From Alphaproteobacteria bacterium (GTDB lineage: Bacteria > Pseudomonadota > Alphaproteobacteria > SP197): DNA of 64,000 nt. The notes under the pieces were generated by a model that worked only from the letters and a program-made list of their open reading frames with translations, was not told where the DNA came from and ran no database searches. Position numbers and translations under genes: made by a program. Location of the stretch: assembly GCA_965200215.1 (NCBI GenBank), contig OZ241369.1:1027787-1091786 (forward strand). Direction: 5' to 3'. Below, piece by piece: positions 2,571 to 30,560 of the stretch (positions within the stretch are counted from its first letter, which is position 1; each line of letters starts with the position of its first letter).

Positions 2571-2643
2571 TCTTGCTTCTCGGCTTGCTCACGCCGCTGC
2601 CACAGGCTAAGCTGTCGCGACCGCTCCGCATGGAGCCATCGCC

Positions 2644-2922
2644 ATGACCCTTGCCGCCTTCGACACCCTCGCCGCCACCCGCGACCTGGAAGCGGCCGGC
2701 ATGGAGCGGCGCCAGGCGGAAGCCGTCGCCGAGGTGACGGCACAGGCGGCCGTCACCGGCCATGGCGAACTGGCCACCAAGGCGGACATCAAGGACTTCG
2801 CCACCAAAGCCGACCTCGCCGATCTCAAGGCCGCCATGGCGCGGCAGGAAGCGCGCCTCTATCTGGCGTTGGTCGGGGTGGTCTTCGCCATCCTCGCCGC
2901 CGACAGGTTGCTGCCGTCGTAG
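2644..2922 (+). CDS. DUF1640-family coiled-coil/TM protein (paralog)
   Basis: ORF track; about 90% identical to 1449..1712. Confidence 0.7.
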   Translation: MTLAAFDTLAATRDLEAAGMERRQAEAVAEVTAQAAVTGHGELATKADIKDFATKADLADLKAAMARQEARLYLALVGVVFAILAADRLLPS

Positions 2923-3143
2923 CAGGTCGCGCCGGGGCGGCCCGTGGCCGCCGCAATGGAGCCCGCCGCCTTCGATACCCTCGCCGCCAGCAGCGGCCTG
3001 GAAACGTCGGCGTGGGGCGGTGTGGCAGAGGTGGTGCCTGGCGGCCCGTTGCCGGCGGGACGCCGGCGCTCGGGGAGCGGTGTGTGGGCGGGCCTGGCGG
3101 CCCGCCGGGGGGCGTGACGCTCGGTCGGTACTGGGGGCGCCCT

Positions 3144-3476
3144 TCAGTTGGCGGCGGTTTCGTCGGCGGGTGCCTGGGCCAGGCGGTCGGGGCGGGCCAG
3201 GGCGCCGGCAACCGTGCCTTCGATGCGCGCCATGCGCTCGCGCAACTCCGCCTGACCGGCCTCGATGCGGACGAGGCGTTCCTCGACGCCGGCGAACCGC
3301 GTTTCGATGCGGACCATGCGCTCGCGCAGCTCCACCTGCCCGGCCTCGATGCGGTTGAAGCGCGCCTCGATGCGGGTTTCCAGGGCGGTCATGTCGGCCC
3401 GCTGCCAGCCGAACAGGCCGATGTTCATGGCCGCGATGGCGAGGAACAAGGTGACGAGGGGGTTGATCTTCGGCAT
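3144..3476 (-). CDS. small TM/coiled-coil protein, paralog 3 (divergent: MPKINPLVTLFLAIAAMNIGLFGW)
   Basis: ORF track. Confidence 0.7.
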   Translation of the reverse strand: MPKINPLVTLFLAIAAMNIGLFGWQRADMTALETRIEARFNRIEAGQVELRERMVRIETRFAGVEERLVRIEAGQAELRERMARIEGTVAGALARPDRLAQAPADETAAN

Positions 3477-3688
3477 GACGGTTTCCGCCGGGCGCGTTCG
3501 CTACCTTAGCGCATGGGGCGCGGGTGGCCAAGCGCGGCGGGTGGCGGCGAGCGGTGCCTGGGTGGGGGGTGGTGCGTTGACCTTGCGGCCCGTTGCCGGC
3601 GGGACGCCGGCGCTCGGGGAGCGGTGTGTGGGCGGGCCTGGCGGCCCGCCGGGGAGCGTGACGCTCGGTCGGTACTGGGGGGCGCCCT

Positions 3689-3982
3689 TCAGTTGGCGGC
3701 TTCGGCTTCGTCGGTGGGCGCCTGGGCCAGGCGGTCGGGGCGGGCTAGGGCGCCGGCAACCGTGCCCTCGATGCGCGCCATGCGCTCGCGCAACTCCGCC
3801 TGCCCTGCCTCGATGCGGACGAGGCGTTCCTCGACGCCGGCAAACCTCGTTTCGATGCGGGTTTCCAGGGCAATGAAGCGCGCTTTCAGGGCAGCCATGT
3901 CGGCCCGCTGCCAACCGAACAAGACGACGTTCATGGCCGCGATGGCGAAGAACAGGGTGATGAAGGGGTTGACCTTTGGCAT
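3689..3982 (-). CDS. small TM/coiled-coil protein, paralog 4
   Basis: ORF track. Confidence 0.7.
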   Translation of the reverse strand: MPKVNPFITLFFAIAAMNVVLFGWQRADMAALKARFIALETRIETRFAGVEERLVRIEAGQAELRERMARIEGTVAGALARPDRLAQAPTDEAEAAN

Positions 3983-4242
3983 GACGGTTTCCGCCGGGCG
4001 CGTTCGCTACCTTAGCGCATGGAGCGCGGGTGGCCAAGCGCGGCGGGTGACGGCCGGTGGCTAGTGGCTAGTGGTCGGTGAGAGCGGGAAACGGGGGCGG
4101 TGCCTGACGGCGGGCGTGTGGTGCGTTGGCGGGCCTGGCGGCCCGTTTGCCGGCGGGATGCCGGCGCTCGGGGAGCGGTGTGTGGGCGGGCCTGGCGGCC
4201 CGCCGGGGGGCGTGACGCTCGGTCGGTACTGGGGGGCGCCCT

Positions 4243-4566
4243 TCAGTTGGCGGCGGTTTCGTCGGCGGGTGCCTGGGCTAGGCGGTCGGGGCGGGCCAGG
4301 GCGCCGGCGACCGTGCCTTCGATGCGCGCCATGCGCTCGCGCAGTTCCGCCTGACCGGCCTCGATGCGGACGAGGCGTTCCTCGACGGCGGCAAACCGCG
4401 TTTCGATGCGGGTTTCCAGGGCGGCAAAGCGCGCCTCGATGGCGGCGAAGCGCTCCTCGATGCGGGTTTCCAGGGCGGCCATGTCGGCCCGCTGCCAGCC
4501 GAACAAGACGACGTTCATGGCCGCGATGGCGAAGAACAGGGTGATGAAGGGGTTGACCTTTGGCAT
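4243..4566 (-). CDS. small TM/coiled-coil protein, paralog 5
   Basis: ORF track. Confidence 0.7.
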   Translation of the reverse strand: MPKVNPFITLFFAIAAMNVVLFGWQRADMAALETRIEERFAAIEARFAALETRIETRFAAVEERLVRIEAGQAELRERMARIEGTVAGALARPDRLAQAPADETAAN

Positions 4567-4599
4567 GACGGTTTCCGCCGGGCGCGTTCGCTACCTTAG

Positions 4600-4830
4600 C
4601 GCATGGGGCGCGGGTGGCCAAGGGTGGCGGGTGGCGGCCGGTGGCTAGTGGTTAGTGGTTAGTGGGAGCGGGGGGTGGGGGGTGGGGGCGGTGCCTGGCG
4701 GCGGGATGCTCGGTCGGTGCCTGGAGGCGGGGCGCCGGCGCTCGGGGGGATGGTGTGTGGGCGGGCCGGACGGCCCGCCGGGGGACGTGTGGCTGACGGC
4801 GGTGCCCGGGGGTGCGCTGGGTGGTGGGTG
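4600..4830. repeat. composite GC-rich repeat element
   Basis: Heptamer array + core motifs. Confidence 0.7.
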
Positions 4831-4833
4831 GCT

Positions 4834-5997
4834 TTAGTCCTGGTGGAAATGCCTGGACAGCGCCAGCCCCTGGCCCTGGTAGTGGCTGCCGAGGGCGGCG
4901 CCGTAGAGCAGGTCGGGCCGGGCCAGCAGGCGCTCGTAGCGCAGGCGGCCCATGATCTGGCCGTGTTCCAGGAGGAAGGGCACCTCGTGGCTGCGCACCT
5001 CCAGGACGGCGCGGGAACCGGCGCTGCCGTCGGCGCTCCAGCCGAAGCCGGGGTCGAAAAAGCCGGCGTAGTGGGCGCGGAATTCGCCGACCAGGGTGTC
5101 GTAGGCGGCCATTTCGGCGGCGTGATCGGGCGGCACCTTGACCTGCTCGCGGGTGGCCAGGAGGTAGAACTCGCCGGGATCGAGGATGAGGCGGCCATCG
5201 GCGGGGGGCGGGATGGGGTCCCAGAAGGCCCGCCAGTCCAGCGCCCCCTTACGGTCGATATCGACGATGCCGGCGTGGCGCCGGGCGCGGTAGCCCACCG
5301 GCGCGCCCGGCGCGGCGCCGCGCAGATCGAGCGTGACGGCCAGCGAATCTTCGCGGATGGACGCCTCGCCCTCGGGGGTGTCGACCAGGCGGTGGCGCTG
5401 GTGGAGGCGCGCGAGCGTCACCTCGCCGAAAACCGGCTTGCCGCGCCGGAGCCGCAATTGCGCCAGCCTGGAACCCTGCCTGACGACGGCGCTGAAGGTG
5501 CGCGGCGAGACCTCGGCATAGAGGCGGCCGCGATAGCCGCGCGGCACGCGGTCGAACTCGGTGGCGTAATCGGCGATGACGCGGGTGAAGACGTCGAGCC
5601 GGCCGGTGGAGCTCCTGGGATTGGCGAGGCCGGCGGTCTCGCCCGCGAGCCGCAGCCTTTCCTGCAAGGCCACGACATAGACGCAGCCCTTTTCCAGGAC
5701 GGCGCCGGCGGCCAGGTCGATGCGGTGCATGCCCAGCTGGGAGAGCTTGCGCTCCACCGTGGCGCGCGGTCCCGGCAGAAAGGAGGAGCGCACCCGCCAG
5801 GCGGTCGCGCCCAGGCGGAGATCGATGCTGGCGGGCTGGATCTGGCCGGGAACGAGGGGGCGGTCGGCGAAGATGGCCCTGCCCGCCCCTTCCCGCCCCT
5901 CGCCCACCAGGGCGCGCAGGCGCTGCGAGGGCAGCACGCCGGTGGTGGAGGCGGCGCCGTCGTCGTCGATGAAGCCGAAATGGAACTGTGTCGCCAC
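4834..5997 (-). CDS. dcd: 2'-deoxycytidine 5'-triphosphate deaminase family protein (long two-domain form)
   Basis: ORF track. Motif PASIDLRLG typical of the dCTP deaminase/dUTPase fold. About 387 aa, like the long alphaproteobacterial dCTP deaminase-like proteins. Confidence 0.6.
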   Translation of the reverse strand: MATQFHFGFIDDDGAASTTGVLPSQRLRALVGEGREGAGRAIFADRPLVPGQIQPASIDLRLGATAWRVRSSFLPGPRATVERKLSQLGMHRIDLAAGAVLEKGCVYVVALQERLRLAGETAGLANPRSSTGRLDVFTRVIADYATEFDRVPRGYRGRLYAEVSPRTFSAVVRQGSRLAQLRLRRGKPVFGEVTLARLHQRHRLVDTPEGEASIREDSLAVTLDLRGAAPGAPVGYRARRHAGIVDIDRKGALDWRAFWDPIPPPADGRLILDPGEFYLLATREQVKVPPDHAAEMAAYDTLVGEFRAHYAGFFDPGFGWSADGSAGSRAVLEVRSHEVPFLLEHGQIMGRLRYERLLARPDLLYGAALGSHYQGQGLALSRHFHQD

Positions 5998-6059
5998 GGC
6001 TGCCGCCCCCGACGCCCGGCGGCGAAGCTAGCAGGGTGGGCGGGGGGTGGGCGAGTGGG

Positions 6060-6314
6060 GGGGTAGTGGATAGTGGATAGTGGCCAGTAGCCAGTGGTCG
6101 GTGGCCAGTGGGAGCGGGTGGTGGAGAGGGTGCCCGGCGGTGGGGGGAGTGCGTTGACGGGCCTACGGCCCGTTTGCCGGCGGGACGCCGGCGCTCCCAG
6201 GGGGCGGGACGCCTGGGGGTGGTGGCAAACGGTGCCTGGCCGTTTTCGAACCTAGGCGCTACCGCAAAGATCCAGCGCCACCCGCTCTCACCATCCACTA
6301 ACCACTAGCCACTA
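6060..6314. repeat. composite GC-rich repeat element (heptamer arrays + core + GGCAAACGG...TTCGAACC terminal module), interrupted by IS
   Basis: Motifs as elsewhere. The heptamer array continues at 7165-7200 on the other side of the IS. Confidence 0.7.
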
Positions 6315-7162
6315 GGCTCAGGACCCATAAACGGTCTTGAGTATTGTTGTGAGAAGTGGTTCAAGCTCTTCCAGATATAGAGGAGGCTATCATGTCTGAC
6401 CACCACTTCTGGTTATCGGATGCCCAGTTCGCCCGCATCCAGCCGCTGTTGCCCAACAAGGTGCGCGGTGTGCCCCGGGTCGATGACCGGCGCGTCATCT
6501 CGGGCATCATCCACGTCATTCGCAACGGGCTGAGGTGGCGTGACGCGCCGCCTGAATACGGTCCTCACAAGACCCTCTACAACCGCTTCGTGCGCTGGAG
6601 CAGGGCTGGCGTATTCGGACGCATCTTCGAGGCTCTGGCTGCCGACAGCCGGGCGTCGGGGACGGTGATGATCGACGCCACCTACCTGAAGGCTCACCGG
6701 ACTGCGGCCAGCCTGCTCAAAAAGGGGCTTTTCCGCGATGTATCGGGCGTAGCCGAGGCGGCTTGAACTCGAAGCTGCACGCGGTTTGCGACGGCGATGG
6801 CAAGCCCTTGATCCTGCTGCTGACCGAGGGGCAGGCCAGCGACTACCGGGGTGCCGAGGCCATCTTGCCGGCAGTGCCGGACGCCGATGTCCTGATCGCC
6901 GACAAGGGCTATGACAGCGACCGTTTCCGCCAAGCCCTGGCCGAACGGCGCATCGAGACATGCATCCCCGGACGGGCGAACCGCAAGAGGCCGGTAGAAT
7001 ATGACCCAAAGCTATACCAGCGGCGAAACCTCATCGAACGGATGTTCGGAAGGCTCAAGGACTGGAGGCGCATCGCCACACGATACGACCGATGCGCGCA
7101 CACCTTCTTTAGCGCTATCTGCATCGCCGCCACCGTCATCTTCTGGTTATGAGTCCTGAGCC
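6315..7162 (+). mobile_element. IS5-family insertion sequence (IS427-group-like), about 848 bp, imperfect terminal IRs GGCTCAGGACCCATAAACGG / GGCTCAGGACTCATAACCAG (rc), flanked by TA duplication, inserted into a heptamer array
   Basis: Terminal inverted repeats found by eye. Two overlapping transposase ORFs. Flanks ...CCACTA|IS|TAGCCACTGG. Confidence 0.8.
6392..7152 (+). CDS. IS5-family transposase, orfA (6392..6766) and orfB (to 7152) joined by a programmed -1 frameshift near CTC-AAA-AAG (about 6716-6724)
   Basis: ORF track (6356..6766 and 6763..7152). orfB frame is -1 relative to orfA and open back to the A-run. AGGAGG RBS directly before ATG 6392. DDE_Tnp_1-type sequence in orfB. Confidence 0.8.
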
Positions 7163-7236
7163 TAGCCACTGGCCAGTGGCGACCGGCCACCGGCGACTGT
7201 TGACAGGGCTGGCGGGGGCGGCCTAACCCCGGCGCC

Positions 7237-8595
7237 ATGGTGGAAGCTGTGCGCGTGATCGGCGGCGGGCTGGCCGGGACGGAGGCGGCCTGGCAGATCG
7301 CGCGCGCCGGGCTGCCGGTGGTGCTGGAGGAGATGCGCCCGCAACGCTCCACCCCCGCCCACCGGACCGGGCTGCTGGCGGAGCTGGTCTGTTCCAACTC
7401 CTTCCGTTCCGACGACGGCGACAACAACGCCGTCGGCCTGCTGCACGAGGAGCTGCGGCGGGCCGGTTCCGTCGTGATGGCGGCGGCCGACCGCCACCGG
7501 GTGCCGGCGGGAAGCGCGCTGGCGGTGGACCGGGAGGGCTTCGCGGCGGCGGTGGAGGCGGCGGTGGCGGGCGAGAGGTCGATCGCGGTGGCCCGGCGCG
7601 AGGCGCGGCGCCTGCCCGATGCCGGCCCGGCCATCGTCGCCACCGGGCCGCTGACCTCCGACGCGCTGGCGGCCGACATCCTCCGGGCCACGGGGGCGGA
7701 GGCGCTGGCCTTTTTCGACGCCATCGCGCCCATCGTGCACCGCGACAGCATCGATTTCGACGTCGCCTGGATGCAGTCGCGCTACGACAAGGCGGGGCGC
7801 CCCGGCGACGAGGCGGCCTATATCAATTGCCCGCTTTCGAGGGACGCCTACGACGCTTTCGTGGACGGGCTGGTGGCGGCCGAGGAGGCCGGGTTCCGGG
7901 AGTGGGAGCGGGAGACGCCCTATTTCGAGGGCTGCCTGCCGATCGAGACCATGGCCAGGCGCGGGCGCAACAGCCTGCGTTTCGGCCCCATGAAGCCGGT
8001 GGGCCTCACCGACCCCGGAAGCGGCGAGCGGCCCTTCGCCGTGGTGCAGCTGCGCCAGGACAACGCGCAGGGGACGCTGTTCAACATGGTGGGCTTTCAG
8101 ACCAAGCTGAAGCACGGCGAGCAGCTGCGCCTGTTTCGCACCGTGCCCGGCCTGGGCGAGGCCCGTTTCGCGCGGCTGGGCGGGATGCACCGCAACACCT
8201 TCATCAACAGCCCGGCGCTGCTGGATGGGGCGCTGCGGCTGCGGCGGCGCCCGCATCTGCGCTTCGCCGGCCAGATCGCTGGCGTCGAGGGCTATGTGGA
8301 AAGCGCCGCCATCGGCCTGCTGGCCGGGCGCTTCGCGGCGCTGGAACGGCAGGGGCGCGCCATCCATCCACCGCCGGCGACCACCGCCCTGGGGGCGCTG
8401 CTGAACCACATCACGGTGGGCGCCGACGCCAGCAGCTTTCAGCCCATGAACTGCAATTTCGGGCTGTTCCCGCCGCCGGACCCGCGCCTGCGCGGCAAGC
8501 AGCGGCGCGCCTCCTTCGCCATCCGCGCCCGCGCCGATCTCGGCGCCTGGCTGCAACGGCACGAAGGGCTGTTTGCGGGAGGGGCTGGGGGTTAG
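7237..8595 (+). CDS. trmFO: methylenetetrahydrofolate--tRNA-(uracil54-C5)-methyltransferase TrmFO
   Basis: ORF track. N-terminal FAD motif [12 protein letters not shown]. Conserved [14 protein letters not shown] region. Confidence 0.9.
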
Positions 8596-8599: not shown

Positions 8600-9135
8600 C
8601 GGTGGCCGGTGGCCAGTGGTTAGTGGTTAGTGGCTAGTGGTCAGTGGCTAGTGGTGCGGGTGGTGTGTGGCGGTGCCTGGCGGTGGGGTGTGGTGCGTTG
8701 ACGGGCCTTGCGGCCCGTTTGCCGGCGGGACGCCGGCGCTCCCAGGGGGCGCGTGTGGCTGACGATGGTGCCTGGGGCAGGTGGCTAGTGGTCAGTGGCC
8801 GGTGGCTAGTGGCCAGTGGTGCGGGTGGTGTGTGGCGGTGCCTGGCGGTGGGGTGTGGTGCGTTGACGGGCCTTGCGGCCCGTTTGCCGGCGGGACGCCG
8901 GCGCTCCCAGGGGGCGCGTGTGGCTGACGATGGTGCCTGGGGCAGGTGGCTAGTGGTCAGTGGCCGGTGGCTAATGGCCAGTGGTGCGGGTGGTGTGTGG
9001 TGGTGCCTGGCGGTGGGGACGGTGCGTGGGCGGGCCTTCGGCCCGTTTGCCGGCGGGACGCCGGCGCTCGGGGAAACGATGTGTGGGCGGGCCTGACGGC
9101 CCGCCGGGGGGCGTGACGCTGGCGGCGGTGCCTGG
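8600..9135. repeat. three tandem copies of the composite repeat element (about 178-bp units duplicated at 8644-8820 and 8822-9000, plus a third core)
   Basis: Near-identical tandem blocks, each ending in heptamer arrays. Confidence 0.75.
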
Positions 9136-10194: not shown

Positions 10195-10540
10195 GTGGTG
10201 GGGGTGTGCCTGGCGGTGGTTAGTGGCTAGTGGCTAGTGGCTAGTGGCCAGTAGCCAGTGGTCAGTGGCCAGGTGCCAGTGGTGCGAGCGGTGCCTGGCG
10301 GTGGGGGTGGGGCGTTGACGGGCCTTTGGCCCGTTTGCCGGCGGGACGCCGGCGCTCCCAGGGGGCGGGACGCTCGGTCGGTGCCTGGGGGCGGGACGCT
10401 GGCGGGGGTGCCTGGTGGTGGGCGGGGGTGCGTGGGCGGGCCGGACGGCCTGGCGGGGGCTTGTGGCTGGCGGCGGTGCCTGGGGGCGTGTGGCTGGCGA
10501 TGGTGGCTGGGGGTGGGTTTACTTCGCCTTTGGGGGCGGC
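10195..10540. repeat. composite GC-rich repeat element
   Basis: Heptamer array 10200-10290 + core. Confidence 0.7.
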
Positions 10541-12477: not shown

Positions 12478-12800
12478 TGGGTGGCCGGTGGTCGGTGGTC
12501 AGTGGCTAGTGGTTAGTGAGAGCGGGTGGTGGGGGTGGTGCCTGGCGGTGGGGTGTGGTGCGTCGGCGGGCCTTCGGCCCGTTGCTGGCGGGACGCCGGC
12601 GCTCGGGGAACGGTGTGTGGGCGGGCCTGGCGGCCCGCCGGGGGGCGGGACGCTCGGTCGGTGCCTGGGGGCGATGGGTGGCTGGCGGTGGTGCCTGGGG
12701 GCGATGGGTGGCTGGCGGTGGTGCCTGGGGGCGATGGGTGGCTGGTGGCGGTGCCTGGGGGCGATGGGTGGCTGGTGGCGGTGCCTGGTGGTGAAGGGGG
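12478..12800. repeat. composite repeat element with internal 30-bp tandem repeat (GTGCCTGGGGGCGATGGGTGGCTGGCGGTG x4.3, 12661..12795)
   Basis: Direct inspection. Confidence 0.8.
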
Positions 12801-19384: not shown

Positions 19385-19560
19385 CAGGGTGGGGGTGGCC
19401 GGTGGCTAGTGGCTAGTGGCTAGTGGTTAGTGAGAGCGGGGGGTGGGGGTGGTGCCTGGCGGTGGGCGTGTGGTGCGTTGACAGGCCTTTGGCCCGTTTG
19501 CCGGCGGGACGCCGGCGCTCCCAGGGGGCAGGACGCTGGCGGCGGTGCCTGGGGCGTGGA
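19385..19560. repeat. composite GC-rich repeat element
   Basis: Motifs. Confidence 0.7.
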
Positions 19561-19629
19561 GCGCCGGATGGGGGCGTGTTAGCCTTGCCGGGCGCTGCCC
19601 AGTGGCGGCGGGAGAGCGGCGGTGGGGCG

Positions 19630-22600
19630 ATGAGTGGACGATTTTTCGAGCGCCCGATCCTGAACTCGCCCTATGAGCGTCCGCAGCGCTACTGGAAGCT
19701 GGACGAGCACGGCCAGCCCAGCGACCTGGTCGTGCCTTGCCGCCGGGAGGTCGATTTCATCACCCCGATCCCCCAACCCAGGAAGCGCAGGGGCGGCAGG
19801 GGGCAGCCGACGCTGGCCCTGGAAAACGAGGCGGCGCGGCGGCTGTCCAGCGAAGGGCAGCGATACGATCTGGCCACCGCCATCAACGCCATCCGCCAGC
19901 GGGTGGACCGCTGGCGGGCGCTGCCGGAGGCGCAATGGCGGGTGACGCCGGAAACCGCCCGTCTGCTCCGCCACTGGCGTGGCCATCGCTTCGCCGATTT
20001 CCGGCCCTTCTTCTGCCAGGTCGAGGCGGTGGAGACCGCAATCTGGCTGACCGAGGTCGCGCCGGCCATCGGCGGTACCGGGCGGGTGTTTCTCGACCAT
20101 CTGGCGACGGTCAACGACGAGGCCAATCCCGGCCTCGCCCGGCTGGCCCTGAAGCTGGCCACCGGGGCCGGCAAGACCACGGTGATGGCGATGCTGATCG
20201 CCTGGCAGACGGTCAACGCGGTGCGCCACCCGGGCAGCCGGCGCTTCACGCGCGGTTTTCTGGTGACGACGCCCGGCATCACCATCCGCGACCGGTTGCG
20301 CGTGCTCCAGCCCAACGACCCCGACAGCTACTATCGCAGCCGCGAACTGGTGCCCGCCGACATGCTGGCCGATCTGGAGCGGGCGAAGATCGTCATCACC
20401 AACTTCCACGCCTTCGGGCGGCGCGAGACGATGACGGTCTCCAAGGGCGGGCGGGCCCTGCTCCAGGGCCGCGGCGGGGCGCTGCCGTCGCTGGAGAGCG
20501 AAGGGCAGATGCTGCGGCGCGTCATGCCGGAACTGATGGGCATGAAGGGCGTCATGGCGCTGAACGACGAAGCCCATCACTGCTATCGGGAAAAGCCGGG
20601 CGAGGCGGACGAGGGCGAGCTGGCCGGCGACGAGCGCCGGGAAGCCGAAGACAACCGCGAGGCGGCCAGGCTCTGGATCTCCGGCCTGGAAGCGGTGGGG
20701 CGCAAGCTGGGGCTGGCCCGCGTCGTCGACCTTTCGGCGACGCCGTTCTTCCTGCGCGGTTCCGGCTATGCCGAAGGGACGCTGTTTCCCTGGACGGTGA
20801 GCGATTTCTCGCTGATGGACGCCATCGAATGCGGCATCGTCAAGCTGCCGCGGGTGCCGGTGGCCGACAACGACCCAAGCGCCGACGTCCCCAAATTCCG
20901 CAATCTGTGGGAGCATGTCGGCAAGCGGATGCCGAAGAAGGGCGCCGCCGGGGCGGGAAGCCTCGATCCCCTGAAGATCCCCGTCGAGCTGCAGACGGCG
21001 CTGGAAGCCCTCTATGGGCATTACGAGAGGACCTTCGAGCTGTGGCAGCAGGCCGGCATCGACGTGCCGCCCTGTTTCATCGTCGTGTGCAACAACACCG
21101 CCACCTCGAAGCTGCTGTTCGACTACATCGCCGGCTTCGAGCGCCGCCAGGGCGACGGCTCCACCGCGCCGGTGCCCGGGCGCCTGTCCCTGTTCCGCAA
21201 TTGGGACGAGAACGGCGTGCGCCTGGGGCGGCCCCGCACCGTCCTCATCGACAGCCGCCAGCTGGAGTCCGGCGAGGCCCTGGATCCGCGCTTCCGCGCC
21301 CTGGCCGCCGGCGAGATCGAACGCTTCCGCCGCGAGATCGTCGAACGCACCGGCGACCGCCGCCAGGCCGACAACCTTTCCGACCAGGAGCTGCTGCGCG
21401 AGGTTCTCAACACCGTCGGCAAGGCGGGGCGGCTGGGCGGCGACATTCGCTGCGTGGTCTCCGTCTCCATGCTGACCGAGGGCTGGGACGCCAACACCGT
21501 CACCCACATCCTGGGCGTGCGCGCCTTCGGGACGCAGCTTCTGTGCGAGCAGGTGGTGGGCCGCGCCCTGCGCCGCCATTGCTACGAGCTCAACGAAGAC
21601 GGCCTCTTCGACGCCGAATATGCCGACGTGTTCGGCATCCCCTTCGACTTCACGGCCAGGCCGGTGGCGGTGGCCCCGCAACCGCCGCGCAAGGTGGTGC
21701 AGGTGAAGGCCATCGCCGAGCGCGCCAGGCTGGAGATCCGCTTCCCGCGCGTCGCCGGCTACCGGGTGGAACTGCCCGAAGAACGCCTGGAAGCCCGTTT
21801 CGACGCCGATTCCACCCTGGTGCTGACGCCCGAATGTGTCGGCCCCTCCGTCACCCACAACGAGGGCATCGTCGGCGAAGGCGTGGACCTGCACATCAAG
21901 CACCTCGACGGCGTGCGCCGGGCCACCCTGCTCTTCCATCTCGCCAAGTATCTGCTGGAGACGAAATATCACGACGCCGACGAAGCGCCCAAGCAGCACC
22001 TGTTCGGCCAGCTGAAGTCGATCGCCGGCCAGTGGCTGGACCGCCATCTGGTCTGCAAAGGCGGCACCCGCCAGGCGCAGCTTCTCTACCGGCAGCTGGC
22101 CGACTTGGCCTGCGAGCGCATCGCGCGGGCCATCACCGTCCGCTATGCCGACCAGCGCCCGGTGACGGCGGTGCTCGACCCCTACAACCCGGAAGGCTCC
22201 ACCGCCTGGGTCCATTTCGCCACCTCAAAGGCCACCTGGCGCACCCATCCCGCCCGCTGCCACATCGACCACGTGGTCTGCGACAGCAATTGGGAGGCGG
22301 AGTTCTGCCGCGTCGCCGAGGGGCATCCGGCCGTCCTCGCCTATGCCAAGAACCAGGGCCTGGGACTGGAGATCCCCTGGAGCCAGGGGGCGGAGCCGCG
22401 CATCTATCTGCCCGATTTCGTGCTGCGCCTGGACGACGGGCGCGGAGCCGACGATCCGCTGCATCTGATCGTCGAGATCAAGGGCTGGCAAGGCGAGGAG
22501 GCCAAGGACAAGAAGGCGACGGTGGAGACCTACTGGATCCCCGGCGTCAACCGGCTGGCCCGCTTCGGGCGCTGGGCCTTCGCCGAGTTTCGCGACGTCT

Positions 22601-22665
22601 GGGAGATCGAGGACGGCTTTGCGCGGCTGGTGGCGGGGCTGCGGGGTGGGGGCGTTAGTGGATAG
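19630..22665 (+). CDS. type III restriction enzyme Res-like subunit (SF2 helicase with DEAH box LNDEAHHC + C-terminal endonuclease region)
   Basis: ATG 19630 within ORF 19423..22665. Walker A LATGAGKT. DEAH motif. 1011 aa. C-terminal stop inside a heptamer array. Confidence 0.75.
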   Translation: MSGRFFERPILNSPYERPQRYWKLDEHGQPSDLVVPCRREVDFITPIPQPRKRRGGRGQPTLALENEAARRLSSEGQRYDLATAINAIRQRVDRWRALPEAQWRVTPETARLLRHWRGHRFADFRPFFCQVEAVETAIWLTEVAPAIGGTGRVFLDHLATVNDEANPGLARLALKLATGAGKTTVMAMLIAWQTVNAVRHPGSRRFTRGFLVTTPGITIRDRLRVLQPNDPDSYYRSRELVPADMLADLERAKIVITNFHAFGRRETMTVSKGGRALLQGRGGALPSLESEGQMLRRVMPELMGMKGVMALNDEAHHCYREKPGEADEGELAGDERREAEDNREAARLWISGLEAVGRKLGLARVVDLSATPFFLRGSGYAEGTLFPWTVSDFSLMDAIECGIVKLPRVPVADNDPSADVPKFRNLWEHVGKRMPKKGAAGAGSLDPLKIPVELQTALEALYGHYERTFELWQQAGIDVPPCFIVVCNNTATSKLLFDYIAGFERRQGDGSTAPVPGRLSLFRNWDENGVRLGRPRTVLIDSRQLESGEALDPRFRALAAGEIERFRREIVERTGDRRQADNLSDQELLREVLNTVGKAGRLGGDIRCVVSVSMLTEGWDANTVTHILGVRAFGTQLLCEQVVGRALRRHCYELNEDGLFDAEYADVFGIPFDFTARPVAVAPQPPRKVVQVKAIAERARLEIRFPRVAGYRVELPEERLEARFDADSTLVLTPECVGPSVTHNEGIVGEGVDLHIKHLDGVRRATLLFHLAKYLLETKYHDADEAPKQHLFGQLKSIAGQWLDRHLVCKGGTRQAQLLYRQLADLACERIARAITVRYADQRPVTAVLDPYNPEGSTAWVHFATSKATWRTHPARCHIDHVVCDSNWEAEFCRVAEGHPAVLAYAKNQGLGLEIPWSQGAEPRIYLPDFVLRLDDGRGADDPLHLIVEIKGWQGEEAKDKKATVETYWIPGVNRLARFGRWAFAEFRDVWEIEDGFARLVAGLRGGGVSG

Positions 22666-22870
22666 TGGATAGTGGATAGTGGATAGTGGTTAGTGGCCGG
22701 TGGCCAGTAGCCAGTGGTCGGTGGGAGTGGGTGGCTGGTGGTGGTGCCTGGCGGCTGGGGGGTGGTGCGTTGACGGGCCTTTGGGCCGGTAGCCGGTGGC
22801 CGGTGGTCGGTGAGAGTGGGTGGCTGGCGGTGGTGCCTGGGGGTGGCTGACGGCGGCTGCCTGTTTTCAC
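22655..22870. repeat. composite GC-rich repeat element (heptamer arrays GGATAGT/GGTTAGT...)
   Basis: Motifs. Confidence 0.7.
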
Positions 22871-25214: not shown

Positions 25215-25600
25215 GGTGGGGGGTAGTGGCTGGTGGGTAGTGGATAGTGGATAGTGGATAGTGGTTAGTGGCCGGTAGCCAGTGGCCGGTGGTCGGTGGG
25301 AGTGGGTGGCTGGTGGCGGTGCCTAGCGGCTGGGGGGTGGTGTGTCGACGGGGCTTTGGGCCGTTTGCCGGTGGGGTGGCGGCGCTCGGGGGAATTTCGT
25401 GCGCGGGCGGGCCGGACGGCCCGCCGGGGGGCGGGACGCTGGCGGCGGTGCCTGGGGGTGGTGGCTGGCGGTGGCTGCCTGTTTTCATGCCGGGGCGCTG
25501 CCCCTCTCCTCCAGGTGCGCCCGTTCCCACTGGCCACTGGCCACCGGCCACCGGCTACTGGCCACCGGCCACTAACCACTAACCACTAGCCACTGGCCCC
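25215..25600. repeat. composite GC-rich repeat element (two heptamer arrays in inverted orientation flanking core)
   Basis: Motifs. Confidence 0.7.
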
Positions 25601-25665
25601 GCCCGGCGTATCGACGGTTTGGCTTTTCCGGGCCACACTGCGGGTGTGGCGTGGGGGTGGATTTC

Positions 25666-28600
25666 ATGGTGGGGAAGCGCAGGGGGGCGAAGAGCAAGGG
25701 GGTTGCCGCCTTTACCCATGAGGGGGCGCGGCGGGCGAACATTCCCACCGCCGAGCTCGACGCGGTGATGGCCGAGGGCGAGAAGGCGGCGGTTCGCATC
25801 GCCTATGAGCGCCGCAACCGAGATCTGGACCCGCAGCTGGTCTGGCGCGGCAAGGACGAGCAGGACCAGGCCGATCTGGTGGTCCAGGCGCCGCCGCTCT
25901 ACATCCAGGAGAAGGTGCACCCCAAGGCGCTGATCGACGACCTGCTGCGCCAGTCGAAGCGGCGGCGCGACGAGGCGGCCGAAGAGGCCCCGGACCTGTT
26001 CGCCGATTTCAACGGCCTGCCCGAAGGCGCCGCCCGAACCGAGTTCTACCGCCACGACGCCAACTGGTCGAACCGCATGATCCTGGGCGACGCGCTGCGG
26101 GTGATGGCCTCGCTGGCCGAGCGCGAGGGCCTGCGCGGCAAGGTGCAGGCGATCTATATCGACCCGCCCTACGGCATCCGCTTCAACTCCAACTTCCAGT
26201 GGTCCACCGGCAGCCGCGACGTGAAGGACGGCAAGGCGGCGCATATCACCCGCGAGCCGGAGCAGGTGAAGGCCTTTCGCGACACCTGGCGCGACGGCAT
26301 CCATTCCTATCTCTCCTATCTGCGCGACCGGCTGACGGTGGCCCGCGAGCTGCTGGCCCCGAGCGGCTCGGTATTCGTGCAGATCGGCGACGAGAACGTC
26401 CACCGGGTGCGGGCGGTGATGGACGAGGTGTTCGGGGAGGGGAATTTCGTCAACCAGATCAACTGCCGCACGAATAGCGGAACCACAAGAGGCGACTCAC
26501 TCAAGCGAACGAACGACTACCTGCTTTGGTACGCAAAGAATATCGAAAGCAAGAAGTTTCGGCGATTGCTGGTTGAGCGAGACGTCGAAACAAACATGTA
26601 TAGTCAGCTCCTTTTTGAGGATTTGTCAGTTCGTCCCATGACTCAGGAAGAGAAGAAAAAGCCAACGCTAATTCCCGACACGGCTAGAGCATATAGGAAA
26701 TTACCACTCCACTCGATGAACGCCGGAGACCATACACCGCGGAAAGCATTCGGAAGGTATTGGAAAATACCATCTAACCGCAGTTGGCGCCATTCCCTGG
26801 CCGGTTTCGACCGGCTCTTGCGGTCATCTCGAATACAAGCAGACCTGAGTGCTCTTAGCAGCCGCTATTTCCACAGCGACTATATCGCCTCCGAGCTAAC
26901 CGAGACTTGGGTGGATACAGGCCCCGAAGTGGACAAGTCCTACGTAGTCCAGACGTCCGAGCGGATTGTCCAACGCTGCCTGCTGATGACCACCGACCCC
27001 GGCGACCTGGTGCTGGACCCGACCTGCGGTTCCGGCACCACCGCCTATGTCGCCGAGCAATGGGGCCGGCGCTGGATCACCATCGACACCTCGCGGGTGG
27101 CGCTGGCGCTGGCCCGGGCGCGGATCATGGGCGCGCGCTATCCCTGGTATATCCTGGCCGACAGCCCGGAAGGGCAGAGGAAGGAAGCGGAACTGGACCG
27201 GCGCGCGCCTTCCGAGGCGGCGACCGGCGGCGATGTCCGCCAGGGCTTCGTCTATCGGCGGGTGCCGCATGTGACGCTGAAATCGATCGCCAACAATGCG
27301 GAGATCGATGCGATCTGGGAGAGGTGGGAGGGGGTGTTGGGGGCGTTGCGGAGTCAACTATCAGTTGCCAGTGGCCAGTCGCCAGTGGCCAGTGACCGGC
27401 AACCGGCGACTGGCGACCGGCCACCGGCCACCGGCAACCGGCCACTGGAGGAATGGCAGATTCCCCGCGAGGCTGGCGCCGGCTGGCCCGACGAGGCGAA
27501 GGCGGCGCATGCCGAGTTCTGGCAGGCGCGCATCGGACGGCAGAAGGAGATCGACGCCTCCATCGCCGCCAGGGCCGACAGCGAATATCTCTACGACAAG
27601 CCCTATGAGGACAGGGAGCGCATCCGCGTCGCCGGCCCGTTCACGGTGGAAAGCCTGGCGCCGCACCGCACCGTGGCCAGCGAGGGGGAAGGCGCCGCCG
27701 AAGACGGCCACGGATACCACGGCGGCGGGGCCTTCCCGGAACGCGATTTCACCGCCCTGGTGCTGGAGCAGCTGCGGGCTGCCGGCGTGCAGCAGGCCCG
27801 CAAGGACGACCGCATCGACATCGCCTCCATCGAGGGCTGGCCGGGGCGTTCCATCTGCGCCACGGGGCGCTTTCGCGAAGGCGGGGCCGAACGCCGGGCC
27901 GGCATCCTGATCGGCCCCGAATTCGGCACCGTTTCCAAGCCCGACCTGACCGCCGCCGCCCGCGAGGCGGCCGAGGCCGGTTTCGACGCGCTGATCGCCT
28001 GCGCCTTCAGCTACGACGCCCATGCCAGCGAGTTCGACCGCCTGGGCCGGGTGCCGGTGCTGAAGGCGCGCATGAACGCCGATCTGCACATGGCCGGCGA
28101 GCTGAAGAACACCGGCAAGGGGAACCTGTTCGTGGTGTTCGGGGAGCCTGATATAGAAGTGGCCGGTGGCCGGTGGCTAGTGGCCAGAAACGGGAAGATG
28201 ATCGCGCGTTATGAGCACGTCAAAGAGCTATCAGGACTTGGAAGTCTGGAAGAAATCAATGGAGCTGGCGGAAGAGGTCTATCGGCTCTCTGCCGGGTGG
28301 CCGGCGGAGGAGCGATTCGGTCTGACCGGTCAGATGCGCCGCGCGACGGTGTCCATCCCGGCGAACATCGCGGAGGGAGCGGAGCGGCACGGAACGCGGG
28401 AGTTTCTCCACTTTCTGGGGATAGCGAGCGGCTCCCTGGCGGAAACGGAGACCCTTCTGATTCTGGCCCGGAGGCTGGGGATGTCTCCGCCCGAACGGAT
28501 TTCACCGCTTCTGGAACGAGCCGGGGAGATCGGACGGATGCTCAACGGCCTCAAGCGATCGCTGCGATCGAGGCATTGAACGACGGCGACTTCCCGCTTT

Positions 28601-28944
28601 CACTGACCACCGGCCACTGGCTACAGGTCGCCATTCGCGGTATCGACATTTATCGCCCCGACACGGGTCAGATTCACAGCGACGGTCCCGACGGCATCGC
28701 GCTGTGGTTCGTGGACAGCGACTACAACGAGGAGAGCTTTTTCGTTCGCCAGGCCTATTTCCTGGGCGCCAACGACCCCTACAAGGCGCTGAAGACGACG
28801 CTGAAGGCCGAGATCGACCCGCAGGCCTGGGCGAGCCTGAACAGCGACACCTCCCGCCCCTTCCCCGCCCCCGCCTCGGGCCGCATCGCCGTCAAGGTCA
28901 TCAACCACCTGGGCGACGAGGCGATGAAGGTGTTCCGGGTGTGA
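25666..28944 (+). CDS. type III-like Mod DNA methyltransferase (beta-class N6A/N4C MTase: motif IV IYIDPPYG precedes motif I DPTCGSGTT), mosaic ORF with AT-richer TRD (about 26460-26900) and two repeat-associated insertions; integrity uncertain
   Basis: ORF track 25651..28944 (ATG 25666 alternative). MTase motifs. Conserved C-terminal module ...RIAVKVINHLGDEAMKVFRV. Confidence 0.65.
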   Translation: MVGKRRGAKSKGVAAFTHEGARRANIPTAELDAVMAEGEKAAVRIAYERRNRDLDPQLVWRGKDEQDQADLVVQAPPLYIQEKVHPKALIDDLLRQSKRRRDEAAEEAPDLFADFNGLPEGAARTEFYRHDANWSNRMILGDALRVMASLAEREGLRGKVQAIYIDPPYGIRFNSNFQWSTGSRDVKDGKAAHITREPEQVKAFRDTWRDGIHSYLSYLRDRLTVARELLAPSGSVFVQIGDENVHRVRAVMDEVFGEGNFVNQINCRTNSGTTRGDSLKRTNDYLLWYAKNIESKKFRRLLVERDVETNMYSQLLFEDLSVRPMTQEEKKKPTLIPDTARAYRKLPLHSMNAGDHTPRKAFGRYWKIPSNRSWRHSLAGFDRLLRSSRIQADLSALSSRYFHSDYIASELTETWVDTGPEVDKSYVVQTSERIVQRCLLMTTDPGDLVLDPTCGSGTTAYVAEQWGRRWITIDTSRVALALARARIMGARYPWYILADSPEGQRKEAELDRRAPSEAATGGDVRQGFVYRRVPHVTLKSIANNAEIDAIWERWEGVLGALRSQLSVASGQSPVASDRQPATGDRPPATGNRPLEEWQIPREAGAGWPDEAKAAHAEFWQARIGRQKEIDASIAARADSEYLYDKPYEDRERIRVAGPFTVESLAPHRTVASEGEGAAEDGHGYHGGGAFPERDFTALVLEQLRAAGVQQARKDDRIDIASIEGWPGRSICATGRFREGGAERRAGILIGPEFGTVSKPDLTAAAREAAEAGFDALIACAFSYDAHASEFDRLGRVPVLKARMNADLHMAGELKNTGKGNLFVVFGEPDIEVAGGRWLVARNGKMIARYEHVKELSGLGSLEEINGAGGRGLSALCRVAGGGAIRSDRSDAPRDGVHPGEHRGGSGAARNAGVSPLSGDSERLPGGNGDPSDSGPEAGDVSARTDFTASGTSRGDRTDAQRPQAIAAIEALNDGDFPLSLTTGHWLQVAIRGIDIYRPDTGQIHSDGPDGIALWFVDSDYNEESFFVRQAYFLGANDPYKALKTTLKAEIDPQAWASLNSDTSRPFPAPASGRIAVKVINHLGDEAMKVFRV
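27355..27450. repeat. palindromic heptamer-repeat array inserted in-frame inside the Mod coding region
   Basis: GCCAGTG/GCCAGTC units followed by their inverse (CCGGCAA/CCGGCGA...); translates as VASGQSPVASDRQPATGDRPPATGNRP. Confidence 0.75.
28211..28579 (+). CDS. four-helix-bundle protein (23S rRNA intervening-sequence protein family-like), nested inside the Mod ORF in a different frame
   Basis: ORF track. Sequence MSTSKSYQDLEVWKKSMELAEEVYRLS...IPANIAEG...ETETLLILARRLG matches my recollection of that family. Flanked by heptamer repeats at about 28160-28195 and 28595-28625. Confidence 0.6.
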   Translation: MSTSKSYQDLEVWKKSMELAEEVYRLSAGWPAEERFGLTGQMRRATVSIPANIAEGAERHGTREFLHFLGIASGSLAETETLLILARRLGMSPPERISPLLERAGEIGRMLNGLKRSLRSRH

Positions 28945-28948: not shown

Positions 28949-30079
28949 ATGGCGGGGCTGGACTGGATCACCATCGAGGGTTTCAAGAGCATCGCCTCCA
29001 TCGAGAGGCTGCCGCTGCGCCCGATCAACGTGCTGATCGGCGCCAACGGTTCGGGGAAGTCGAATTTCGTCGAGGCCTTTTCGTTTCTGCACGCGATACG
29101 GTCCAGGAAGCATCACGACCATGTCATGCGCGCGGGGGGCGGCGACAGGATTCTTCATTTCGGCGCGCGAACGACGCCCCAGTTGAAGCTTCACATCTCT
29201 TTCGAAGAACAAGTGTATCAATATGAGATAGCACTGGCGCCGGACGATGGAGATCACCTCTTTCCGTCGGGGGAATGTACCTATTTCTGGAACAAACATG
29301 TGTATGAACCTTACATCGAGCCCCTTATGGGAAGCCATGGCCATGCGGGCATCAGCCGCCCGTATTTCAAGCCAACAACACCCACAGCGAATTATGTCCA
29401 GAAGCACCTGGACAGCTGGCGCCTGTATCACTTCCCGGATACCGGCGCCGCATCGCCGCTGAAGAAGACGGGCGACGTAAACGACAACCGCTTTCTGCGG
29501 CCCGACGGCTCCAACCTGGCGGCGTTCCTGTATCGGCTGCGCGAGACGGAGCAGGACCGCTACCGGCTGATACGGGACACGGTGCGCCTGGCGGCGCCGT
29601 TCTTCGAGGATTTCGCGCTCGAACCCCTGGTCCTGCACGAGGACAAGATCCCCCTGGAGTGGAAGCACCGGGGGAAAGACGCCTATTTCGACGCCTCCTC
29701 CCTTTCGGACGGCACCCTGCGCTTCATGGCGCTGGCGACGCTGCTGCTTCAGCCGCAGACGCTGCGGCCCTCGGCCATCCTCCTGGACGAGCCGGAACTG
29801 GGCCTGCACCCCTATGCCATCGCGCTTCTCGCCTCGCTGATCGGGCAGGCTTCGGCCGAGACCCAGGTGATTCTGGCCACCCAGTCCTCGCTGCTGCTGG
29901 ACCATTTCAGCCCCGAAGACGTGCTGGTGGCGGAGCGGGCGCGCGGGGCCACCACGCTGACCCGGCTGAAGCCCGAAGAGCTGAAGGAATGGCTGGACGA
30001 CTACAGCCTGGGCCAGCTGTGGGAGAAGAACGAGTTCGGCGGGCGCCCCTCACCCGAAGAGGCGGGCGAGAGGGGATGA
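28949..30079 (+). CDS. AAA_21/ABC-type ATPase (OLD/abortive-infection-like ATPase; Walker A GANGSGKSN, Walker B LLDEPELGLHP)
   Basis: ORF track; start immediately after the Mod stop. Confidence 0.7.
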   Translation: MAGLDWITIEGFKSIASIERLPLRPINVLIGANGSGKSNFVEAFSFLHAIRSRKHHDHVMRAGGGDRILHFGARTTPQLKLHISFEEQVYQYEIALAPDDGDHLFPSGECTYFWNKHVYEPYIEPLMGSHGHAGISRPYFKPTTPTANYVQKHLDSWRLYHFPDTGAASPLKKTGDVNDNRFLRPDGSNLAAFLYRLRETEQDRYRLIRDTVRLAAPFFEDFALEPLVLHEDKIPLEWKHRGKDAYFDASSLSDGTLRFMALATLLLQPQTLRPSAILLDEPELGLHPYAIALLASLIGQASAETQVILATQSSLLLDHFSPEDVLVAERARGATTLTRLKPEELKEWLDDYSLGQLWEKNEFGGRPSPEEAGERG

Positions 30080-30321
30080 CGCGCCTGCTCGTGCATGTGG
30101 AAGGCCAGACGGAGGAGAGTTTCGTCGACCGGATTCTGGCGCCTCACCTTTACCGGCGCGGCTTTTCTTCGATCGGCGCCCGCCTGCTCGGCAACGCCCG
30201 CCAGCGCGAGCGGCGCGGCGGCATCAAGCCCTGGCACGCGGCCCGCAGGGACATCCTGGGCCATCTGCGGCAGGACCGCGAGGCCGTGGCCAGTGGCCGG
30301 TGGCTAGTGGTTAGTGGCTAG
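30076..30321 (+). pseudogene. DUF4276-like gene remnant (N-terminal about 80 aa: MTRLLVHVEGQTEESFVDRILAPHLY...), truncated by insertion of a repeat element
   Basis: ATGA start/stop overlap with the ATPase. Family members are about 200 aa (from memory). ORF ends inside a long heptamer array. Confidence 0.5.
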
Positions 30322-30560
30322 TGGTTAGTGGCTAGTGGTTAGTGGCTAGTGGTTAGTGGCTAGTGGTTAGTGGTCGGTGGGCGGTGGCCAGTAGCCGGTG
30401 GCTAGTGGTTAGTGGTTAGTGGGAGCGGGTGGTGGGGGTGGTGCCTGGCGGTGGGGTGTGGTGCGTTGACGGGCCTGCGGCCCGTTTGCCGGCGGGACGC
30501 CGGCGCTCCCAGGGGGGCGCCGGGTGGCGGGGGCGCGGTAAGGGCGGCAACCATGGCGAG
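30290..30560. repeat. composite GC-rich repeat element with long heptamer array ((GGCTAGT GGTTAGT) x7)
   Basis: Direct inspection. Confidence 0.8.

Follow-up and report, generated by a model that had tools for sequence, protein, structure and literature searches.

How can a complete gene lie inside another gene on the same strand while the outer reading frame stays open? The question is raised by a locus in a 64,000-nt stretch (the window) of contig OZ241369.1, assembly GCA_965200215.1, from an alphaproteobacterial genome. The outer gene encodes a Type III-type DNA methyltransferase (Mod). The inner gene encodes a four-helix-bundle (4HB) protein of the kind known from 23S rRNA intervening sequences (IVS), and it is carried by a short cassette with inverted heptamer arms. 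A preliminary description, made from the letters of the window, regarded the inner gene as an insertion that either kept the Mod frame by coincidence or made Mod a fusion or pseudogene. Judged from its sequence conservation across related loci, the arrangement is a conserved dual-coding one, neither a chance hit nor a pseudogene. We consider it likely that an IVS-type cassette sits in a permissive loop of Mod, codes in two frames, has its 4HB protein made separately under the control of a stem, and is old and horizontally spread.

The nested gene and the inserted cassette

The inner open reading frame (ORF) begins with ATG, has 122 codons, ends with TGA, and lies wholly within the Mod ORF at a frame offset of +1. 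Between 28150 and 28640 the Mod frame holds no stop codon and the third frame holds five, so the open Mod frame reported by the preliminary description was confirmed. The assignment to the 4HB/23S-IVS type also held, with both family profiles matched above their cut-offs and the full profile covered. In profile search, PF05635 gave an E value of 7.7e-39 (132.6 bits, cut-off 33.8), residues 8-113 matching positions 1-106 of 106, i.e., the whole profile, and TIGR02436 gave 1.1e-37 (128.6 bits, cut-off 24). By phmmer against the PDB, the nearest solved structure was XCC0516 (PDB 2gsc, E 5.6e-26, residues 3-121), and the second match was 2rld (E 8e-4). The motif published for the PF05635 family is GxxRxxxSxxxNxxE (PMC3936711). 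Residues 40-55 of the 4HB protein, GQMRRATVSIPANIAE, agree with it as R44-x3-S48-x3-N52-x2-E55, with the glycine shifted by one residue, i.e., G40-x2-R43 precedes the R44 series. S48, N52, and E55 are invariant across three nested copies (alignment A2). By these matches, the ORF is a full-length 4HB protein of the PF05635/TIGR02436 family. Profile scans of the 122-residue protein found no nuclease, recombinase, or transposase domain.

The closest copy of the cassette (93%) was found at locus L004, in an alphaproteobacterial metagenome-assembled genome (MAG). The exact nested 4HB sequences of the window and of loci L001, L003, L004, and L006 were absent from 15 billion predicted proteins, and the sixth of the six sequences looked up was present there only from a contig of 598 nt. 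Gene callers systematically miss nested genes of this type.

Identity of the 4HB protein with Avd of diversity-generating retroelements (DGRs) was rejected. NF033474 reached 23.8 bits against a cut-off of 80 and PF22296 reached 22.8 against 40, i.e., Avd is a distantly related four-helix-bundle fold whose weak profile matches fall far below the cut-offs. No reverse transcriptase was found among the ORFs scanned at 19.4-32.6 kb. Fusion by programmed frameshift was rejected on conserved 4HB-frame stops that lie 12-33 nt upstream of the 4HB ATG. An intein was also rejected, as the Pfam scan of the whole 1097-residue Mod ORF yielded PF01555 plus a below-cut-off PF01170, and no Hint/intein domain.

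From 5' to 3', the cassette consists of an inverted heptamer arm, a putative ribosome-binding site (RBS), the 4HB ORF, a segment complementary to the RBS, and the second arm. Its limits follow from alignment A1, built from Mod proteins, and from two DNA comparisons (L084 and A3). The best 120 Mod homologues listed fall into two length classes of about 925 and 1080 residues. In the short-class proteins P0006, P0027, P0040, and P0081, an 8-residue loop stands at the cassette site, flanked by FGEPDIDI and (Q/R)VxIxGVD, and of these P0006 shares 82% identity with the window Mod. Long-class proteins share a Mod-frame segment of about 154 residues there, even at 61-66% identity (P0016, P0022, and P0059). 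At the DNA level, the insertion-free Mod gene of L084 is 83% identical to that of the window, and large gaps are confined to 27379-27448 and 28158-28618. The view that the gene is an insert relative to a basic Mod was thus borne out by insertion-free homologues at up to 82% identity. The homologue alignment that had been proposed does delimit the segment, i.e., about 154 residues in place of an 8-residue loop, and the conserved C-terminal module was correctly expected to resume after it, at 28624. The preliminary description had taken homologues with the same segment in the Mod frame as a sign against the insertion. Such homologues were found, but the nested gene stands, with dual coding conserved among them.

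No target-site duplication was evident at the cassette junctions, and no second copy of the 4HB cassette was found within the window. The residues LNDGDF after the 4HB stop were considered as native Mod loop in the L084 alignment; this was rejected because the segment also lies within the cassette of a non-Mod host, L012. In-frame internal deletions in P0014, P0015, and P0025 abolish the 4HB gene and leave the Mod frame open. In P0037, whose loop is flanked by FGEPDIEI and QVRVRGVD, the cassette site is occupied by an unrelated acidic low-complexity insertion of 63 residues. This sequence is consistent with a loop that may be a generally permissive site.

Selection on two frames and the terminal stem

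The 4HB protein was used as the sole query, with one genome per species, and 80 loci were taken from 362 relatives. Because the query was the 4HB protein alone, the sample is unbiased by Mod integrity. Among the 80, 71 distinct copies sit in a Mod homologue with identical geometry: the N-terminal flank of Mod ends 50 nt before the 4HB ATG, the C-terminal flank begins 45 nt past its stop, and every one of the 71 has the same junctions to the nucleotide. Alignment A3 (DNA, 516 columns) contains 61 Mod-nested copies and not a single indel. The 71 carriers span more than 10 phyla. The loci recovered come from Dehalococcoidia, other Chloroflexota, Poribacteria, Latescibacterota, Nitrospirota, Desulfobacterota, Planctomycetota, Verrucomicrobiota, Acidobacteriota, Alphaproteobacteria, Gammaproteobacteria, and others. 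Carriers are not near-clonal (mean pairwise DNA distance in the insert, 0.27), the C-terminal module shows about 74% amino-acid identity among them, and the 4HB ATG is kept in 60 of the 61 copies of A3. In about 45 of the 71 loci, the Mod ORF runs unbroken for at least 950 codons, and contig ends cut about 13. By these comparative data, chance preservation of the frame by an insertion is excluded.

The Mod frame is free of stops over the 460-nt insert in 70/71 copies, at an insert G+C content of 50-66%, whereas the third frame averages 7.9 stops and the minus-strand frames 4.9. It is also open at 49-55% G+C (L001, L010, and L046). The 4HB frame is intact in about 66 of the 71 copies. Nine free-standing relatives have one to six stops in the frame equivalent to Mod. 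A wobble position of the 4HB gene was called risky if a synonymous T there would put a stop (TAA, TAG, or TGA) into the Mod frame. T was present at 1/1210 risky sites, compared with 19.6% of other T-synonymous wobble sites and 9.6% of risky sites in free-standing copies.

Entropies at the three codon positions were 0.56/0.42/1.12 for the 4HB ORF in its own frame and 0.52/0.43/1.15 for the Mod C-terminal module in the Mod frame. Across the cassette, amino-acid entropy was 1.57 in the Mod frame, 1.57 in the third frame, and 0.88 in the 4HB frame, and the variable codon position there is the third of the 4HB gene and the first of Mod. These entropies, taken with the avoidance of stops and of T, show three things as far as substitutions can tell. 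The 4HB protein is evidently under purifying selection. The Mod C-terminal module 3' of the cassette is evidently translated in frame and also under purifying selection. The Mod-frame peptide across the cassette behaves as a free spacer, i.e., its sole constraints are that stops and indels are absent.

The arms of the cassette consist of heptamer arrays. Tandem Repeats Finder reported GTGGCCG in 3.9 copies at 28159-28185, and the segments 28159-28182 and 28601-28624 are inverted repeats of 83% complementarity. The preliminary description was right that heptamers bracket the gene, but its positions were slightly off for the array at 28159-28185 and the inverted, stem-forming nature of the flanks was missed. 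In A3, columns i and j pair where their sum is 520, which gives a register of 33 pairs (columns 21-53 with 467-499). In this register 79% of cells are paired, compared with 24-46% when the partner is slid by one to three columns. Two-sided changes were counted in 89 cells, against 53 ± 9 in shuffles, and 11 pairs were changed on both sides. The compensatory pairs include 42/478 (UA 21, CG 20) and 44/476 (GC 18, AU 15), and further 23/497, 28/492, 29/491, 36/484, and 50/470. At 42/478, a synonymous leucine change on the left (CTG/TTA) matches a Gly/Asp change on the right, which argues for a nucleic-acid rather than a protein constraint. RNAalifold recovered the terminal stem without guidance, together with an inner helix, and the minimum-free-energy fold of the window transcript has the terminal stem closed (z-score -2.9). 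The covariation shows that the arms are kept as a long-range stem of about 30 bp, predicted to form in the RNA.

The inner helix pairs GGGAG (columns 57-61; 28192-28196) with CUUCC (columns 455-459; 28590-28594), directly past the 4HB stop. The pair 57/459 is GC in 61/61 copies, and the remaining pairs are kept through G-C/G-U changes. In the window, the pairing extends over 28188-28197 with 28590-28599. G57 and G58 are invariant in A3 despite lying outside the 4HB ORF, in an otherwise free Mod-frame spacer, and GGGAG is the sole conserved purine block upstream of the 4HB ATG. We infer that GGGAGG, the family consensus, is the RBS of the 4HB gene and that the pairing would sequester it, with caution as the inner helix is backed by changes of one kind, i.e., G-C/G-U.

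Related cassettes, history, and competing explanations

A profile of the read-through peptide, i.e., the Mod-frame translation of the cassette, was searched against 1.84 billion representative proteins. Matches were obtained in 230 clusters at E ≤ 1e-3 and in 61 at E ≤ 1e-10, at many positions and in proteins of many lengths. The domains in the 62 longest hosts were MmeI_Mtase (23), Eco57I (22), N6_Mtase (19), and PF01555 (8), besides single other restriction-related domains and a few unrelated proteins. The first eight large hosts scanned were all of Eco57I/MmeI type, with the cassette at differing sites. In the DNA of two Eco57I/MmeI-type hosts, L085 (58% G+C) and L086 (49% G+C), an intact 4HB ORF lies in +1, the host frame is open, the third frame is stop-rich, and repeat arms are present; their 4HB proteins are 52% and 46% identical to that of the window. 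A host other than a methyltransferase is found at L012 (Poribacteria MAG, 1501-8351), where the cassette is in frame within a protein of at least 2283 residues whose frame stays open. This host has a signal peptide, LysM, an M28 peptidase domain, and transmembrane segments, and its cassette lies within longer heptamer-coded stretches. The 4HB start of L012 is ACG, not ATG, and a second heptamer-coded patch, LTTSHRPLTT, is found near residue 2200.

Inverted heptamer arrays also bracket the free-standing relatives (L045, L053, L058, L061, L069, L071, L077, L079, and L083). Directly upstream of the cassette-bearing Mod of L001, a distant PF05635 gene (5566-5922, within 5517-5977) has arms made of inverted arrays of another heptamer (GAAGTTA/GAAGAGT, 81-89% complementary). 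The inverted-arm architecture therefore reaches beyond the 4HB subfamily of the window. Free cassettes stand in tandem at L053 3880-4560, where the upstream arm and a second 4HB start recur past the stop. In that genome, a premature stop interrupts the Mod-nested copy (L027) at codon 29.

By these sequence matches, the window contains one instance of a general cassette habit, with a strong bias to DNA methyltransferase genes. The bias is likely because only stop-free, in-frame insertions leave the protective methylase working. Methylase hosts would then be favoured, since only non-disruptive insertions survive and the host gene is hard to lose.

The proposed course of expression is as follows. 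Mod ribosomes would read through the cassette in frame 0 and give a variable spacer of about 154 residues, then the C-terminal module. The 4HB protein would be made separately, in +1, with the mod transcript as its message and its own conserved ATG as the start. The stem and the RBS pairing would keep 4HB translation low until the stem is opened, which translating Mod ribosomes might do, or RNase III through a cut of the kind known from rRNA. The arrangement would be old and would have spread horizontally together with restriction-modification genes. As for the 4HB protein, our best guess is a nucleic-acid-binding factor for the hairpin RNA of its own cassette or for the host restriction-modification system.

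Several points weigh against this account. Translation of either frame through the cassette is read from substitution patterns. Mod is interrupted outside the cassette in 13 of the 71 carriers, and pseudogenes or errors of assembly may account for these. Because the loci share ancestry, their counts do not represent independent events. The AlphaFold2 model of the full Mod was poor (91-sequence alignment, mean pLDDT 54, pTM 0.34), and the surface-loop placement of the insertion thus rests on the alignment. The inner RBS helix is conserved but has almost no two-sided compensatory changes, and the 13 nt between GGGAGG and the ATG are long for a Shine-Dalgarno site. On a neighbour-joining Mod tree (604 core columns), on which 89 of the 120 homologues carry the insert and 31 do not, the history needs at least 11 gains or losses (random labels, 27.7). 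The correlation between insert and flank distances is weak (Spearman 0.31-0.36, with L008 excluded for a flank indel). One old insertion with later recombination of alleles, or repeated site-specific insertion, would be equally compatible with these sequences.

The two options of the preliminary description, i.e., a recent insertion whose frame was kept by luck, or a Mod pseudogene or fusion, now appear very improbable. Long spurious open frames are common at the 71% G+C of the window, and the interrupted carriers mentioned above would suit a decaying Mod. However, the frame is just as open in the loci of 49-55% G+C, 70/71 copies are stop-free against about eight stops in the third frame, and T is almost absent from risky sites. 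Coincidence thus fails on 71 Mod genes from many phyla with selection against Mod-frame stops. The pseudogene fails on the C-terminal module downstream of the cassette, which has a protein-coding substitution pattern indicating purifying selection, in carriers whose insert distance of 0.27 is not near-clonal. That the 122-codon ORF is instead an accident within a genuine Mod domain, with no second protein, can be given almost no weight. Gene finders do skip the ORF, and five of six nested sequences are missing from the protein collection. An accidental ORF would, however, have to match the whole PF05635 profile at E 7.7e-39, keep its ATG in 60/61 copies, and concentrate variability at its own third position, the first of Mod. 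Mod homologues without the segment exist, and so do close 4HB relatives as free-standing genes.

Removal of the cassette, by RNase III excision and ligation, or its bypass by ribosomes would give a Mod protein without the insert. This is attractive in that the covarying terminal stem of about 30 bp brings the junctions together, and RNase III cuts 23S rRNA intervening sequences of the same architecture out of their hosts (PMC4990558). Removal or bypass would relieve the need for an open Mod frame, but a Mod frame with neither stops nor indels across the 462 nt is the strongest signal we have, and it counts against both. To our knowledge, no bacterial ligation step for such excision from mRNA is known. 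We regard this explanation as unlikely; RNase III cleavage may be a regulatory or degradative side reaction. A somewhat better, still low, probability is given to an actively homing element, in which the 4HB protein promotes site-specific insertion and the Mod copies are repeated independent insertions. The patchy presence on the Mod tree and the weak distance correlation would fit homing. So would the cassettes found in intergenic places, in a giant non-methylase protein, and at several Eco57I/MmeI-type sites, always between inverted heptamer arms. A mobility role of the ORF was suggested by Ralph and McClelland, as cited in PMC4990558. On the other side, the protein is a helical bundle with no nuclease, recombinase, or transposase domain in profile scans, and target-site duplication was not seen. 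The junctions are identical in 71/71 Mod copies, the cassette is single-copy in the window, and homologous recombination between Mod alleles explains the patchiness equally well. An old, dual-coding cassette in a permissive loop is preferred.

Each component of this reading has known counterparts. ORF-bearing 23S rRNA IVS of Leptospira and Coxiella burnetii resemble the cassette in size (428-444 nt there, 462 nt here), in the enclosing terminal stem of about 28-33 bp, in the single ORF of about 120 residues of one family, and in patchy distribution and horizontal spread. In Coxiella, the terminal stem of the IVS measures 28 bp, RNase III excises the element, and its S23p ORF was described as decaying and unexpressed (PMC4990558). 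Unlike these, the cassette has a protein-coding methyltransferase ORF as host, whose frame is open and evidently translated; it needs no RNase III excision, and its 4HB ORF is under clear purifying selection. Rickettsia palindromic elements and intragenic miniature inverted-repeat elements are in-frame palindromic repeats inside genes (PMC10969869). The cassette is likewise in frame and stop-free at a tolerated site, with terminal inverted repeats. However, those elements have about 100-150 bp and no gene of their own, whereas the cassette carries a complete conserved gene in a second frame and its arms are arrays of 7-nt units.

Nested genes out of frame on the same strand are also known, for example comS within srfA of Bacillus subtilis. 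A second example is gnd of E. coli, which contains GndA (PMC11230408). As in both pairs, the second protein here lies wholly within a larger gene. ComS and GndA have 36-46 codons, are lineage-restricted, and arose by overprinting, whereas the 4HB gene is an imported family gene of 122 codons found in more than 10 phyla, and the outer frame here is constrained merely to stay open. As with inteins and self-splicing introns, a selfish insert persists in an important gene since host function is kept, but the cassette is neutralised as a translated spacer and not by splicing. In the literature, the PF05635 family is found in rRNA intervening sequences, DGRs, and cas loci, and its genes lie between genes of CRISPR-Cas loci (PMC3936711). 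There too the family is embedded in defence-gene operons, but between cas genes and not inside one, and no dual coding is described. Full-text searches found no description of a 4HB gene nested in a methyltransferase and no link between heptamer repeats and the PF05635 family. The IVS cassette, the in-frame palindromic element, and the nested gene are thus known kinds, whose combination was not found described.

In bacteria, we know of almost no long nested pairs on one strand that are shared between phyla. The cassette codes in two frames over 369 of its 462 nt, it does so in more than 70 lineages, and the selection against outer-frame stops is measurable. It links the unexplained ORF-bearing 23S rRNA IVS with the frequent 4HB genes in restriction-modification and CRISPR loci, so far regarded as separate matters, and hints at a single type of element that spares its host in two different ways. 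It marks an annotation blind spot, with five of the six nested proteins looked up missing from 15 billion, and it could serve to test translational coupling through a long-range stem, permissive insertion sites in large methyltransferases, and the use that selfish cassettes make of addictive genes.

It may even be, although we lean somewhat against it, that 4HB IVS cassettes are widespread stealth elements in genes that are costly or lethal to disrupt, with a product that tunes expression. If so, their main targets would be rRNA and restriction-modification methyltransferases, where lost methylation leads to self-restriction, and they would be neutralised by RNase III excision or by stop-free read-through in an alternate frame. 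Riding on an addictive gene would make them very hard to lose, and the 4HB product would tune expression through the hairpin RNA or through the restriction-modification system. As gene finders pass over the inner genes, protein databases would then lack a dual-coding layer of defence islands.

The methyltransferase locus and its heptamer repeats

The features of the Mod gene are given in Table 1.

Table 1. Positions in the window of the Mod gene, the cassette, and their parts
Feature	Position	Strand	Description and basis
Mod ORF, Type III-type methyltransferase	25651..28944	+	1097 codons, open through the cassette; PF01555, PADLOC
Cargo-less heptamer hairpin, in frame in Mod	27364..27448	+	Inverted arms; absent from L084; variable in homologues
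Left arm	28156..28188	+	GTGGCYR heptamers (A3 columns 21-53); tandem array, inverted-repeat pair, covariation, RNAalifold
23S-IVS-type cassette	28162..28623	+	462 nt, i.e., 154 Mod-frame codons; A1, L084 comparison, gap-free 61-sequence A3
Putative RBS	28192..28197	+	GGGAAG (family consensus GGGAGG), 13 nt upstream of the 4HB ATG
Nested 4HB gene	28211..28579	+	122 aa, +1 frame relative to Mod; PF05635, TIGR02436, PDB 2gsc, entropies
Candidate anti-Shine-Dalgarno segment	28590..28594	+	CTTCC, pairing with GGGAG; RNAalifold helix, inferred
Right arm	28602..28634	+	Reverse-complement heptamers (A3 columns 467-499); extends into the first post-cassette Mod codons
Conserved Mod C-terminal module 3' of the cassette	28624..28944	+	About 74% aa identity among carriers; Mod-frame entropies

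The ATG at 25666 gives the 1092-residue database protein P0001. The ORF matched PF01555 (E 2.8e-32) and PADLOC MTase_III PDLC03632 (1233 bits) in two stretches, the first of which ends at residue 855, near the cassette. Its translation contains the motifs IDPPYG (DPPY) and DPTCGSGTT. An ORF at 19423-22665 reached 22.3 bits with ResIII, against a cut-off of 22.5, and had no PADLOC match. In L084, which is syntenic, and in L001, a ResIII-annotated gene of about 1010 residues lies upstream of Mod. The gene order in L084 is Res, a 157-residue gene, a DUF1828 gene, a 93-residue gene, Mod, an AAA_15 ATPase gene, and a 158-residue gene. The ORFs scanned near Mod form a restriction-modification and defence island, not a retroelement.

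The promoter and terminator scan of the Mod gene found no promoter-like site anywhere and no terminator-like site within the gene; the single terminator-like site is upstream, at 25460-25479. The Rfam search of the window found one tRNA, no rRNA, and no intron structure. Compared with L084, the window has an extra stretch at 28949-30422, i.e., an AAA_21 ATPase gene (PADLOC HEC-01A, E 2e-132) and a DUF4276 ORF, placed after Mod and ahead of the AAA_15 ATPase gene. The DUF4276 match covers positions 1-53 of the 192-position profile, and the ORF runs into a heptamer array of 19.6 copies at 30286-30422; it looks truncated. The window Mod at 26430-26930 (residues about 260-430; A1 columns 275-440) is unrelated to P0002 and near-identical to it elsewhere. 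This block pattern is as expected for a swap of target-recognition domains between alleles.

Heptamers occur in Mod outside the cassette as well. The arms of the cargo-less hairpin (27368-27399 and 27417-27448) are 84% complementary, and the hairpin adds 63 nt to the L084 sequence, i.e., 9 heptamers or 21 codons. Across the 120 Mod homologues, the length of its site ranges from 5 to 42 residues, and the Mod tree requires at least 14 changes there. It is a direct analogue of the Rickettsia palindromic elements. A third in-frame heptamer insertion was seen in the Mod N-terminal flank of L006 (about 3440-3530) and in P0016 (A1 columns 781-800), for example GRFDSGQWPVVSGQKKNAQATGHRPRATEH where the window reads GRFREGGAERRAG. 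By these sequences, at least three loops of Mod appear to accept heptamer hairpins. The Mod of L056 (about 3900-4000) jumps from the first heptamer site (…LEPLSVVSGQWLV) straight into the cassette, which points to a deletion of about 270 codons through recombination between heptamer arrays. L018 (about 3880-4000) has a different internal deletion, in which the motif ARYP is joined to the cassette.

Arrays of at least three tandem GTGGYYR-type heptamers were counted 29 times on the forward and three times on the reverse strand of the 64 kb, and never in shuffles. Nearly all lie in the first 37 kb (600-37000), every 1-2 kb and at apparent gene boundaries, for example at 8601-8656, 10215-10270, 22657-22719, and 30292-30417. 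Upstream of Mod, 25217-25598 holds forward heptamer arrays, G-rich repeats of 13/26 nt (GGGGCGGGACGCTGGCGGCGGCTGCCT), and ten reverse heptamers (CCACTGG). This element is bounded by a hairpin, lacks a 4HB gene, and contains the only terminator-like site of the region. A 165-nt unit is repeated 2.8 times with 94% identity at 8616-9069 and contains heptamers and the motif GGTGCCTGGCGG. A 30-nt unit is repeated 4.4 times with 97% identity at 12655-12788. The motif GGTGCCTGG recurs close to many heptamer arrays. A 21-nt tandem repeat (GGCGGCAAAGCGCGCCTCGAT, two copies) is identical at 2113-2155 and 4420-4462, 2.3 kb apart, and an 84-nt tandem repeat lies between the two sites, at 3203-3370. These repeats suggest a duplicated or repeat-rich coding region.

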